This document shows positions 19,971 to 22,240 of a DNA stretch of 51,010 nt, in pieces. Both the position numbers and the translations under genes were made by a program. Origin of the DNA: an uncultured Candidatus Saccharibacteria bacterium. GTDB lineage: Bacteria > Patescibacteriota > Minisyncoccia > Phycocordibacterales > Zambryskibacteraceae. The notes below the pieces were generated by a model that ran no database searches, was not told where the DNA came from, and saw nothing but the letters and a program-made list of their open reading frames with translations. Positions within the stretch are counted from its first letter, which is position 1. Every line of letters begins with the position of its first letter. The DNA lies in the NCBI GenBank assembly GCA_964603485.1, contig CAZRVE010000003.1, forward strand, positions 1 to 51,010, given 5' to 3'.

Positions 19971-20456
19971 ATGGAGATTCAAGATAAAGAACTCCACAGA
20001 ATTGCGATGACTGCGATTATCTACGATAAGGATCGTAGATATCTCATTACCAAGCGTGCGCCACACAAAAAGCATTTTGGAGGTAGATGGACCGTTCCTG
20101 GTGGCGGGCTTTCGGTTGATGACTACATAAATTTACCTCGTACTCATGAAGGGCAGAATCAGTGGTACTACTCTCTTACCAACGGATTGGTGCGTGAAGT
20201 AAAAGAAGAAGTTGGACTTAGTGTTGGTAAACCTGAATATCTTCTCGACCTCACCTTTATTAAGGGCGATAATGTCCCGGTCCTTGTTCTAAGTTACTTT
20301 GCTGAGTATTTAGGAGGTGAAGTTACCCTTGATGAAGATGCAACAGAATTTAAGTGGGTCTCTGTAGATGAAGTAAAAGACTATGATCTGATAGAAGGAA
20401 TAGATAAGGAAATAAAGATGGTTGACGATATTCTTAAAAAAAGAAATGCCAAATAA
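19971..20456 (+). CDS. NUDIX hydrolase
   Basis: WTVPGG...LVREVKEEVGL Nudix box, with an insertion. Confidence 0.85.
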   Translation: MEIQDKELHRIAMTAIIYDKDRRYLITKRAPHKKHFGGRWTVPGGGLSVDDYINLPRTHEGQNQWYYSLTNGLVREVKEEVGLSVGKPEYLLDLTFIKGDNVPVLVLSYFAEYLGGEVTLDEDATEFKWVSVDEVKDYDLIEGIDKEIKMVDDILKKRNAK

Positions 20457-21375
20457 TTTATACACGCATCAGGATTCAAATATTAGAAAGACATGGGTTT
20501 TTGTAACCGTCTTTTTTCTCCTAGTTATTGCTCTGGGCTGGTTCTTTTCTTATGTGTATGAAAATCCTGGAATCTTAGTGATTGCGGTTGTTTTCGCAAT
20601 CTTCATGAATGTGTTTTCATACTGGTTTTCAGACAAGATTGTGCTCAAAATGCACAAAGCGCATCCTGTAACTCGAGAAAGTTATTTCGATCTTTGGACA
20701 GTGACAGAAAATCTTTCTATTGCTGCGGGCCTTCCAATGCCAAAGCTCTACATTGTAGAAGATTCTGCTCCCAATGCATTTGCTACAGGAAGGAATAAAG
20801 AGCATGCCGTGGTTTGTGTTACTACAGGCCTTGTGCAACTTCTTGATCGCACCGAGCTTGAGGGGGTGATTGCTCACGAGCTTGCTCACATTGGAAACAG
20901 AGACATGCTCCTCTCTACCATTGTTGTGGTGATGGCGGGTTTTGTAACTCTTCTTTCGGATTTCTTTCTACGAAGTGCACGTTGGGGTGGGGGAAGAGAC
21001 AACAACGGACGAGGAGGTCAGATTCAAGGGATTCTTTTTCTTGCAGGAATAGTTCTTGCAATTCTTGCTCCAATTATTGCAACGCTCATTCAGCTCGCAA
21101 TTTCTCGTAAACGAGAGTTTCTTGCGGATGCATCAGGCGCACTTCTCACTCGCTATCCTGAAGGACTTGCAAATGCGCTCAAAAAAATAAATGGGAGCGG
21201 GGTACATATGAAAACAGCAAATCATGCGACCGCACATCTCTTTATCTCAAACCCTTTTGGCCCAGATGGAAAGGGGGCTTCGTTCATGCAAAAGATTTTC
21301 ATGACTCACCCTCCAGTAGAAGAGAGAGTAAGCGCTTTGCTTGGGAGCACAAAAACCGATACTATTTCGAGGTAA
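20446..21375 (+). CDS. htpX: Membrane zinc protease HtpX (peptidase M48)
   Basis: PNAFATGRN, ELEGVIAHELAH (HEXXH), ISRKREFLADA, THPPVEER; likely start ATG 20446. Confidence 0.93.
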   Translation: MPNNLYTHQDSNIRKTWVFVTVFFLLVIALGWFFSYVYENPGILVIAVVFAIFMNVFSYWFSDKIVLKMHKAHPVTRESYFDLWTVTENLSIAAGLPMPKLYIVEDSAPNAFATGRNKEHAVVCVTTGLVQLLDRTELEGVIAHELAHIGNRDMLLSTIVVVMAGFVTLLSDFFLRSARWGGGRDNNGRGGQIQGILFLAGIVLAILAPIIATLIQLAISRKREFLADASGALLTRYPEGLANALKKINGSGVHMKTANHATAHLFISNPFGPDGKGASFMQKIFMTHPPVEERVSALLGSTKTDTISR

Positions 21376-21395
21376 TTCTGGAGGATTCGCATAGT

Positions 21396-21415
21396 CCTGC
21401 CCGCCGGCAGGCAGG
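21396..21415. repeat. 20-bp REP-like palindrome inserted in the D-loop of the outer tRNA
   Basis: CCTGCCCGCCGGCAGGCAGG, one mismatch from the copy at 21630. Confidence 0.85.
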
Positions 21416-21491
21416 GGTCTAGTGTGCTAGATTGTTCCCAATCTGTTCAAGAGCGAAGCGATTGACTACAGATTGCAATCCCGCACAGAGC

Positions 21492-21576
21492 GGAGGAGTG
21501 GCAGAGCGGTCGAATGCGCTCGCTTGGAAAGCGGGTATACCGCAAGGTATCGCAGGTTCAAATCCTGTCTCCTCCG
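21492..21576 (+). tRNA. tRNA-Ser (anticodon GGA), intact
   Basis: GGAGGAG/CTCCTCC acceptor stem with G discriminator; anticodon arm CTCGC-TTGGAAA-GCGGG; long variable arm ATACC-GCAA-GGTAT; T-arm GCAGG-TTCAAAT-CCTGT; CCA not encoded. Confidence 0.95.
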
Positions 21577-21629
21577 CTCTGTGCGGGAGAAAGGTGGCAA
21601 GGGGGGAAACTCCTTCAAGAGTTCGAATC

Positions 21630-21649
21630 CCTGCCTGCCGGCAGGCAGG
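21630..21649. repeat. 20-bp perfect REP-like palindrome inserted in the T-stem of the outer tRNA
   Basis: CCTGCCTGCCGGCAGGCAGG is its own reverse complement. Confidence 0.85.
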
Positions 21650-21660
21650 TCTTATCCTCC

Positions 21661-21692
21661 GCAAAACAAAAAGCAAAGCTTTTATGTTTTGC
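21661..21692 (+). terminator. Hairpin downstream of the tRNA locus (possible terminator)
   Basis: gcaaaaca-aaaagc-aaa-gctttt-a-tgttttgc. Confidence 0.5.
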
Positions 21693-21733
21693 GAGAATCC
21701 TGAGCTTGCCGAAGGACTCCGTCAATAAAATAT

Positions 21734-22240
21734 ATGCATACAAACTTAGATGAAATGTTGGGAACCCTTGAGAAGCTCGCCGATGAAGTTATTGGTTTTT
21801 ATTTGAGTAAATCATGTCCGTGTGCCTTTCCACGATATCGTTTTTTAGTTGGTTTTAATGGAGATACATACAGCAAAGCATTGCTACACACTTTTGATAC
21901 CAATGTTTTTGTCTCTAAAAGCATAGATTACGAAAACGGTTTCCTGATTGCTCAAGAGAATGAAGAGTTCGTGTGTCGTGTATGTGGGAGTAAATACCGG
22001 TACAAGTATGATCAGTACAGTATTACTTTCGAGAAAATTTCTCTTTCCATCAAAACTCTTAATCAGAAAGAGCTAGGCGCTACGGCAGGATTGCCATTTC
22101 CTCTGTTTGGCGGTGTCTATTTTACAAACGGCGCTTGGGATGAAGAGCAGAATAATCAAGAGTTCGCGAAGCTTTTAAAGGAATTTCCTCAAGCGAGCCC
22201 CGATGAATTCAAAAGTAAAATGCAGGAGTTATCATCGTAG
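21734..22240 (+). CDS. Hypothetical protein with CxC and CxxC motifs (possible Zn-binding)
   Basis: 168 aa ORF; SCPCAFPRY and FVCRVCGSKY. Confidence 0.65.
   Translation: MHTNLDEMLGTLEKLADEVIGFYLSKSCPCAFPRYRFLVGFNGDTYSKALLHTFDTNVFVSKSIDYENGFLIAQENEEFVCRVCGSKYRYKYDQYSITFEKISLSIKTLNQKELGATAGLPFPLFGGVYFTNGAWDEEQNNQEFAKLLKEFPQASPDEFKSKMQELSS

Follow-up and report, generated by a model that had tools for sequence, protein, structure and literature searches.

A complete tRNA-Ser(GGA) nested within a split tRNA-Ser(GGA) gene: a recurrent structured insert in Parcubacteria-type genomes

A complete tRNA inside a split tRNA gene

The window analysed here is the whole of a 51,010-nucleotide (nt) stretch, contig CAZRVE010000003.1 of assembly GCA_964603485.1, from an uncultured Candidatus Saccharibacteria bacterium. 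It is contig C3 of a genome that we designate G000 (648,619 base pairs (bp) in 27 contigs, rated 99.5% complete); other genomes carry G handles and fetched loci carry L handles. At 21380-21661 lies a tRNA-Ser(GGA) gene in four pieces, whose anticodon loop is opened by a 154-nt insert, hereafter X, that holds a second, complete tRNA-Ser(GGA). Directly upstream of this nest is an htpX-like gene (Peptidase_M48; 20422-21375, forward strand; Pfam PF01435, E 8.6e-33).

All parts of the nest except the palindromes are read on the forward strand. The first piece of the outer tRNA (21380-21395) comprises the acceptor 5' strand, positions 8-9, the D-stem 5' strand and the start of the D-loop. There a 20-nt GC-rich palindrome (21396-21415) interrupts the D-loop; the congener G001 has no palindrome at this point, and pieces 1 and 2 are contiguous in it. 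Piece 2 (21416-21434) supplies the rest of the D-arm, a non-native anticodon-stem 5' strand and TTG at positions 32-34. X itself, a structured non-coding cassette with a whole tRNA, fills 21435-21588. Its 5' module (21435-21478) is made of TTCCC, the hairpin P_a (21440-21474, with a tandem G-A and a GAA-capped mini-hairpin) and GCAA. Next, TCCC and the 5' strand of a second stem, P_b (21479-21491), pair with 21576-21588 and prolong the acceptor stem of the inner tRNA to a 20-bp helix; the inverted repeat so formed (I2, 20 nt) is 100% complementary. The intact inner tRNA-Ser(GGA) occupies 21492-21576, and X ends with the P_b 3' strand, whose first base is the inner discriminator G, and GGGA (21576-21588). 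Piece 3 (21589-21629) carries GAAA (positions 35-38), the anticodon-stem 3' strand, the long variable arm, the T-stem 5' strand and the T-loop as far as GAATC, where the second palindrome copy (21630-21649) interrupts the T-loop. The T-stem 3' strand, the acceptor 3' strand and the discriminator G form piece 4 (21650-21661).

In the native sequence of 21380-21661, only the inner tRNA-Ser(GGA) is called, at 21492-21577 by ARAGORN and at 21492-21576 by Rfam, where it scores 56.1 bits against RF00005 (gathering score 29) with both cloverleaf and anticodon in place. Over the whole window, Rfam at the gathering score finds nothing but tRNAs. The outer tRNA forms no contiguous cloverleaf that either program calls. 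ARAGORN also leaves it uncalled when the palindromes alone or the insert alone are removed, and in intron mode on the palindrome-free sequence. Removal of both palindromes together with 21435-21588 yields an 89-nt tRNA-Ser(GGA) cloverleaf with two anticodon-stem mismatches, into which all four pieces fit. As a control, triple excisions of matching sizes were placed at random 300 times; two gave a tRNA call of any kind, and none a tRNA-Ser. X lies exactly between G34 and G35: the order is TTG, insert, GAAA, and the closed loop reads the anticodon GGA. Among the tRNAs called in G000, the inner one is the only one with a GGA anticodon.

Logan contigs from two DNA runs of one study, possibly the source sample, show no differences from the locus. 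Those of run X1 span 21218-21550 and 21523-21900, those of run X2 21200-21450 and 21523-21900, so that each palindrome and both outer/insert junctions are bridged, at a depth of only about 3-5x. The sole break falls within the inner tRNA, with a 28-nt overlap in X1. Two small-share runs, X3 and X4, cover tRNA and palindrome parts only; six RNA runs hold 0.04-0.05 of the sampled words each, from which nothing was concluded on habitat or expression. Because the Logan contigs bridge the junctions, and because excision rebuilds the outer tRNA and random excisions do not, we take the layout to be real.

A sequence-only reading of the window had described an intact tRNA-Ser(GGA) inside a second tRNA-Ser, and the inner calls, the outer gene rebuilt by excision, the contrast between native and excised sequence in ARAGORN and the check for misassembly all bear it out. 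Both palindromes are where it had placed them (0 expected by chance). It had also held that their removal restores the acceptor stem, D-arm, long variable arm and T-arm of an outer tRNA; ARAGORN calls that tRNA only if X is removed as well. It had put an insert of about 160 nt in the place of the anticodon loop: the place is right, the size is 154 nt. Its guess of an outer NGA (Ser) anticodon, in a loop whose 5' half it could not rebuild cleanly, is now specified as GGA, split between G34 and G35 in the loop TTG/GAAA.

The insert recurs with a conserved fold

A strict pattern of the layout matched 9 of 401 genomes of the order. The same pattern gave 106 stretches in a species-level genome collection, of which 80 were listed and examined, the other 26 lying outside that set. 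Among the 80, 22 are true nests, all in metagenome-assembled genomes of Parcubacteria/Paceibacterota type, and 58 are chance matches in large genomes. Seven of the 22 duplicate genomes that also have G handles, judged by identical flanks. With duplicates counted once, the full layout is confirmed in 25 species of the Parcubacteria/Paceibacterota group; the named carriers of X are labelled Parcubacteria, Paceibacterota, Yanofskybacteria, Moranbacteria or Saccharibacteria. G008, G011, G023 and G153 have remnants or re-interrupted versions of the nest. We aligned 22 copies of X; L095, which has no P_a, and L110 and L111, which the regular expression missed, are left out of this alignment and of the count of callable outer genes given below.

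Each copy follows the same order: TTCCC, the long irregular hairpin P_a, GCAATCCC, the P_b stem clasping a complete tRNA-Ser(GGA), and GGGA. P_b is a 9-10-bp stem that continues the inner acceptor stem, and the length of X varies between 153 and 168 nt. In the window, 85 of the 154 nt are tRNA, which leaves only 69 nt outside it, and there is no open reading frame (ORF). The 5' flank of X ends in TG at 21 of the 22 aligned loci and the 3' flank starts with GAAA at all 22; the final base of the 5' exon is G34 in 20.

In the proposed structure of X, 96.3% of cells are paired, compared with 83.0% in column shuffles (0 of 500 as high) and 42-50% when the pairing partners are slid. Compensatory, double-sided changes occur in 17 of the 31 pairs of P_a and P_b, and RNAalifold predicts the same helices and the cloverleaf on its own. 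Since G-U cells (19) exceed A-C cells (8), the alignment favours selection on the tRNA-sense strand, be it as RNA or as single-stranded DNA. The predicted RNA fold of the window locus is very stable (z = -10.5) and shows the 20-bp P_b/acceptor helix. A scan of 21250-21800 for promoters and terminators found nothing and is not informative.

The outer gene is native and decays

Judged from sequence comparison, the outer gene is the original htpX-linked tRNA-Ser(GGA) of this locus, because it, and not the inner tRNA, resembles the uninterrupted gene of G004, a genome of the same family, and because htpX precedes it in relatives. The reconstituted outer gene equals the G004 gene in 77 of 89 aligned columns, against 60 of 90 for the window's inner tRNA; outer and inner agree in 59 of 89. 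Uninterrupted outer-type tRNA-Ser(GGA) genes are found in G004, G018, G007, G031 and G022, and the C-terminus of an htpX-like gene lies upstream of tRNA-Ser(GGA) also in G011, G031 and G022. An uninterrupted relative at the htpX-linked locus is what the sequence-only reading had led one to expect.

An empty site is provided by G297, whose uninterrupted gene equals the outer halves of G037 in 84 of 86 columns. Its halves meet at the very point that a 168-nt insert occupies in G037, and the junctions show neither shared nor duplicated bases. The comparison of filled and empty site therefore fixes the insertion point between G34 and G35, and makes the boundaries of X unique.

When X alone is removed, ARAGORN calls the outer gene at 3 of the 22 loci, cleanly in G037 and L131 and in aberrant form in a third; L094 is not evaluable. 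The uncallable genes have broken stems, lost ends, and GC-rich hairpins inserted in the D-arm and T-loop. Inspection by eye shows hairpins of this kind breaking the outer 5' half in the window, G002, G287 and G117, as well as in L096, L104, L115, L117, L139, L145 and L191. The outer gene has no 3' end in G001 and no 5' half in G011; that of the window has a broken anticodon stem and interrupted D- and T-loops. Because so few loci remain callable, the outer gene is a dead, decaying remnant and not a spliced tRNA.

The AGATTG-type junction that breaks the outer anticodon stem of the window recurs in the Ser nests of several other species and matches the anticodon stem of a tRNA-Arg(GCG) cargo in G015. 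It may be flanking sequence that travelled with the modules as nests exchanged them.

A module in varied contexts, probably mobile

A covariance model of the 5' module of X, R1, finds it in 8 of 41 near relatives. Across the order it matches 18 of 151 genomes, where a single genome can have as many as 6 copies. Besides tRNA-Ser(GGA) nests, the module stands beside tRNA-Gln in G033 and G121. A full tRNA-Arg(GCG) nest is found in G015 (L182:1445-1705), with the same 5' module after G34 and an outer 5' half that has its own D-loop hairpin insertion. In G004 (L186:1490-1600), a 68-nt element free of any tRNA cargo sits in a displaced duplicate of the 5' end of 5S rRNA, in antisense orientation to that fragment, and adjoins the intact 5S rRNA gene at 1596-1702, the fragment being just upstream. 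Other non-tRNA sites exist; at some of them the P_b strands enclose a short cargo of a different kind. In L193 (G126) and L195 (G123), P_b encloses a conserved cargo of about 40 nt instead of a tRNA, and the flanks are near-identical in the two genomes. Of 23 further module places shown, 16 have, by eye, a TG immediately ahead of the TCCC start.

Nests also contain nests. G220 and L132 hold triple "Russian-doll" arrangements, in which the tRNA enclosed by a second set of X modules is in its turn split by X; the inner tRNA of G153 is interrupted anew and is followed by yet another full copy. Module and cargo also differ in their patterns of similarity. The 5' modules of G002 (family f1) and G287 (f113) are 95% identical and their inner tRNAs 74%, whereas between G000 and G002, both of f1, the 5' module is 78% and the inner tRNA 95% identical. 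The similarity of 5' modules thus clashes with both taxonomy and cargo; from this, the copy numbers, the varied contexts and the nests within nests, we regard X as modular and mobile.

Proposed explanation

We consider it likely that the native tRNA-Ser(GGA) gene was split by X, one of a family of small, mobile two-hairpin elements of this order, with a foreign cognate tRNA in its P_b loop, that the host gene is dead, and that the two copies of the palindrome, which is unrelated to X, came later. The inner tRNA, on this account foreign, would now be the genome's sole GGA tRNA, and the insert thus replaces the gene it breaks. The sequence-only reading had pictured a dead tRNA gene that served as a sink for hairpins and gained a cognate replacement. 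In substance this stands, but the order is different: the tRNA-carrying insert came first and the palindromes after it.

By splitting the only tRNA-Ser(GGA) gene and supplying a substitute, X would let its carriers survive and make itself hard to lose. The unit would be transcribed from the old native promoter. The 20-bp P_b/acceptor helix may act as a folding clamp at the ends of the inner tRNA and so prevent wrong pairing between it and the homologous outer halves. Release of the inner tRNA could then fall to RNase III, RNase P and 3' trimming, the helix perhaps being an RNase III site (an RNase III gene is present in G000), and the outer halves would never be rejoined. Spread could proceed by site-specific insertion, for example through a hairpin-recognising single-strand transposase, or else, once DNA has been taken up, by recombination across the conserved tRNA halves; tRNA-associated GIY-YIG nucleases, by breaking DNA, perhaps stimulate such recombination.

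In streamlined genomes, tRNA genes are single-copy and essential, and an insertion in the anticodon should be lethal. X would avoid this lethality by a complete replacement tRNA, repeatedly, at the same base and in many species. If confirmed, this would be a new way for mobile DNA to live in essential RNA genes and a horizontal replacement of a core component of translation. It would also account for a class of "pseudo-tRNAs" and tRNA fragments seen in this candidate-phyla group, and can itself lead tRNA annotation astray.

Several points weigh against this explanation. Expression and processing of the nest, as sketched above, are wholly our inference from sequence. No enzyme is linked to X: no Y1 transposase was found in G000, its single tyrosine recombinase (PF00589) lies on another contig, and X has no ORF. 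The excess of G-U over A-C cells leans on one column, which holds 11 of the 19 cells, and the search pattern itself accounts for part of the invariance of GCAATCCC and GGAGAAAG in the large set. P_a and P_b persist long after insertion, for which a purely DNA-level parasite has no obvious need, and their conservation raises the question of a role in RNA or single-stranded DNA; a role tied to the host transcript is opposed by the antisense orientation to the 5S fragment in G004. The inner and outer tRNAs are similar in G287, G037 and G220, which could reflect local copying or gene conversion and not foreign cargo. Finally, the proposed scheme explains neither why the cargo is always cognate to its target (Ser in Ser, Arg in Arg) nor how a tRNA entered the P_b loop.

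Y1-transposase-like genes do occur in 4 of the 5 other carrier genomes tested. The vicinity of these genes contains no R1 module (best match 9.5 bits, E 0.94), and TnpB-type PF07282 was not found in the same five genomes. One of these genes, at L216:1285-1992 in G037, encodes a Y1 (HUH) transposase domain in an ORF of 235 amino acids (aa); G090, G097 and G153 have similar ORFs, 229-263 aa long. These four may be relatives of the transposases associated with repetitive extragenic palindromic (REP) sequences.

More tentatively, and as a possibility to which we would not yet give even odds, X may represent a class of non-coding two-hairpin elements with a cognate tRNA as "antidote", which colonises essential single-copy tRNA genes, locks itself in and re-invades its own cargo repeatedly, giving rise to the Russian-doll nests; in effect it would be a protein-free gene drive on the translation machinery of bacteria with reduced genomes. 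Dead RNA-gene fragments would on such a view be sinks for a wider set of GC-rich hairpin elements. X could be a form of known small mobile elements, and a class of its own if a drive with cargo as antidote were confirmed.

Alternative explanations

X might instead stem from one ancient insertion, inherited vertically with frequent loss and no longer mobile. Position and polarity are indeed the same everywhere, X has no ORF or linked transposase, and near relatives usually hold one copy per genome. The outer gene of G037, however, differs from the empty site of G297 at only 2 of 86 columns, and the insertion there is therefore recent. The triple nests, the clash of 5'-module similarity with family and inner-tRNA similarity, and the 3-6 copies of some genomes in varied contexts (tRNA-Arg, beside tRNA-Gln, 5S fragment) also speak for movement, and we hold a single ancient event to be improbable.

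Break repair offers another route to the layout, with a native inner tRNA, outer halves that are partial copies and X as filler. Half-nests, in which a displaced 5' or 3' tRNA fragment stands beside an intact tRNA, are common in G000, at tRNA-Leu, tRNA-Glu, tRNA-Ser(TGA) and tRNA-Gln, and the inner and outer 5' halves of G287 are nearly the same. We nevertheless think such an origin very unlikely: the orthologous uninterrupted gene is matched by the outer and not the inner tRNA, both in the window and in G037, and the same sequence and fold of X in 22 species is not expected of filler.

The sequence-only reading had raised the possibility that the precursor is processed to release the inner tRNA and to rejoin the outer one. 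As a nested intron, a single precursor would lose the inner tRNA, the rest of X and the palindromes, and ligation of the outer halves would give two tRNAs. X does have a conserved RNA-like fold on the sense strand; its site, 34/35, is also where the group I intron of cyanobacterial tRNA-Leu lies; two or three outer genes, among them G037 and L131, are intact once X is removed; and the two palindromes pair in the predicted fold. Against this, 19 of the 22 loci have no callable outer gene after removal of X (one is not evaluable), the anticodon stem of the window is broken and its D- and T-loops are interrupted, and G001 has lost the outer 3' end. The splicing endonuclease EndA (PF01974) has no match in G000, itself rated 99.5% complete, in a search whose control matched four archaea, and an RtcB-type ligase has none either. 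Rfam over 21300-21750, with E up to 10, gives only the inner tRNA and chance matches, and no intron or ribozyme. The 5' exon ends in G and not U, removal of palindromes gave no extra tRNA in 19 loci, and a spliceable insert needs no tRNA of its own. Because EndA and RtcB were not found and the outer gene decays, splicing of the outer tRNA is highly unlikely.

Equally little credence can be given to a scar of an integrase-driven element, phage or island, that entered an anticodon-loop attachment site and was almost wholly deleted. Tyrosine integrases use the anticodon loop and T-loop of tRNA genes, and direct repeats of tRNA segments flank inserts at other loci of G000. The junctions of X share no core or direct repeat in the comparison of G037 with G297, and X has a uniform length of 153-168 nt in 22 species and a whole tRNA, not just its 3' part. 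The three pattern matches in viral contigs are all chance matches without a tRNA, and phage records match the tRNA-Ser part only.

That the locus is an assembly chimera is hardly credible: depth is low at 3-5x and the inner tRNA region collapses reads from many organisms, yet independent difference-free contigs bridge all junctions outside the inner tRNA and the same layout is assembled in at least 25 other species.

Relation to known elements

Integrative elements such as phages and islands enter tRNA genes, often at the anticodon loop or T-loop, and restore them. X shares with them the tRNA target, the carriage of tRNA sequence, the working tRNA that remains and the displaced tRNA fragments left behind. 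They carry only the part of the tRNA past the crossover, leave direct repeats and encode an integrase, whereas X carries a whole tRNA, is nested in a split gene, shows no junction repeat, measures 154 nt and has no ORF; neither a core repeat nor an integrase was found for it.

Group I introns sit in the anticodon loops of bacterial tRNAs, for example in tRNA-Leu(UAA) at 34/35. They resemble X in this position, in being structured RNA and in their patchy distribution. Unlike them, X has no match to an Rfam intron, only 69 nt outside the tRNA and a 5' exon ending in G. The gene it interrupts decays, which is why we regard X as not spliced.

Miniature inverted-repeat transposable elements (MITEs), REP/REPIN sequences and elements derived from the insertion sequences IS200/IS605 are likewise small, non-coding, hairpin-rich and multi-copy in some genomes; we know of no tRNA cargo described for any of them. 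With the IS200/IS605 and REPIN types X has in common the covarying subterminal hairpins, the absence of target duplication and insertion after the short motif TG. It differs in that G000 has no Y1 transposase, no module stands beside Y1 genes, and the two hairpins of X are unlike each other. The target-site duplication of MITEs was not found at the junctions of X.

Archaeal tRNA introns and split and permuted tRNAs are reported to involve short mobile hairpins at D-loop, anticodon or T-loop positions (PMC4090602, PMC3978253). G000, by contrast, has a gene for transfer-messenger RNA (tmRNA), a bacterial hallmark; EndA and RtcB were not found in it, and its interrupted copies are fragments beside intact genes.

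SegB, a free-standing GIY-YIG homing endonuclease in the tRNA cluster of phage T4, is reported to be a selfish element that cuts tRNA genes and spreads by repair and co-conversion of flanks (PMC2330249). In G000, too, two small GIY-YIG genes are flanked by displaced tRNA fragments. X differs from a homing-endonuclease cassette in that it encodes nothing, and the GIY-YIG genes lie at other tRNA loci; a link between these genes and X is conjecture.

In bacteria of the candidate phyla radiation (CPR), insertion sequences are reported to lie in rRNA genes, and many to encode homing endonucleases (PMC11270868). They resemble X in occurring in the same broad bacterial group and in interrupting genes of essential structural RNAs; they differ in target and in the endonucleases that many carry.

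X is thus like integrative elements in logic, like group I tRNA introns in position and like MITEs or REPINs in form, and it fails the defining tests of each. The sequence-only reading knew of no bacterial case. In the excerpts returned by our literature searches we likewise found neither a tRNA described inside the gene of another nor tRNA-gene insertions in this bacterial group, but the layout is a recurrent family and no one-off.

Palindromes and displaced tRNA fragments

The 20-nt palindrome is present in G000 in five copies at four loci. Each is an exact 20-nt addition to a non-functional copy of a duplicated tRNA segment beside an intact tRNA. Two copies lie in the outer tRNA-Ser(GGA) pieces of the window; the others are in a 22-nt 5' fragment of tRNA-Leu(CAA), in a 30-nt 5' fragment of tRNA-Glu(CTC) and in a 3' fragment of tRNA-Ser(TGA). 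Outside G000, the palindrome occurs (with at most 2 mismatches) among related genomes, being found in 13 of 41 overall. Of 40 such places elsewhere, 15 were examined: 6 have an intact tRNA in the 1.9-3.0-kilobase locus, within about 300 nt, and several show tRNA-fragment flanks. The identical palindrome stands in the outer half of the nests of two other species (L139 and L191, in the D-loop).

The congener G001 and G002 both have X as well, and neither has the 20-nt palindrome; at the T-loop point where the window has its second copy, G002 has a different hairpin, of 35 nt. Because G001 has X but no palindrome, the palindromes evidently arrived after X. Comparison with G001 and with intact tRNA copies showed no target-site duplication at the palindromes. 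The idea that palindromes are introns of otherwise intact tRNAs was dropped, as their excision at 19 loci gave no new tRNA call. It is a thought rather than a result that, by interrupting direct repeats, they keep these from recombining and so deleting the insert.

In the predicted fold of the window, 21393-21416 pairs with 21629-21652 over about 22 bp (24-nt arms, 92% complementary), enclosing the whole insert. As modelled, this palindrome-palindrome helix would resemble an rRNA processing stem.

At the tRNA-Leu(CAA) locus (C1:57559-57935, or L042:1437-1813), the palindrome-split fragment is followed by an intact 83-aa GIY-YIG ORF (C1:57617-57868; PF01541, E 7.9e-15), whose stop codon falls within the D-loop of the intact tRNA-Leu. 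This succession of tRNA fragment, GIY-YIG gene and tRNA is also seen, by eye, in G037 (L008) and G011 (L013). At C15:8160-8676 of G000 (reverse strand), the order is tRNA-Gln(CTG), about 130 nt of hairpins, a T-arm fragment displaced from that tRNA, and then the second small GIY-YIG gene.

A second repeated module of about 120 nt, containing GGGGTCGCGAAAATTTTC and ending in GTGACCGA(A/T)TC, is found at C18:7297-7563 and in L015, L175 and L176. In several genomes it adjoins displaced 3' fragments of different tRNAs, and twice it is directly followed by the 20-nt palindrome.

Other tRNA observations in the genome

Several contigs of G000 end in or right beside tRNA genes (C8:1-66, C13:15590-15643, C18:11277-11321), and the assembly seems to break at tRNA loci. 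ARAGORN calls no tRNA-Asp in G000 and one tRNA-Met only. We considered whether the missing tRNAs are hidden by insertions; the extra sub-threshold Rfam tRNA matches lie at or near contig ends (C13, C18, C19), and it is more likely that these genes fall in assembly gaps. ARAGORN reports a "tRNA-Stop(tta)" at C18:1213-1286 (reverse strand). A one-base shift of its anticodon stem gives the canonical loop CTTTTAA, and the gene probably encodes no suppressor but tRNA-Lys(UUU), which is otherwise missing.

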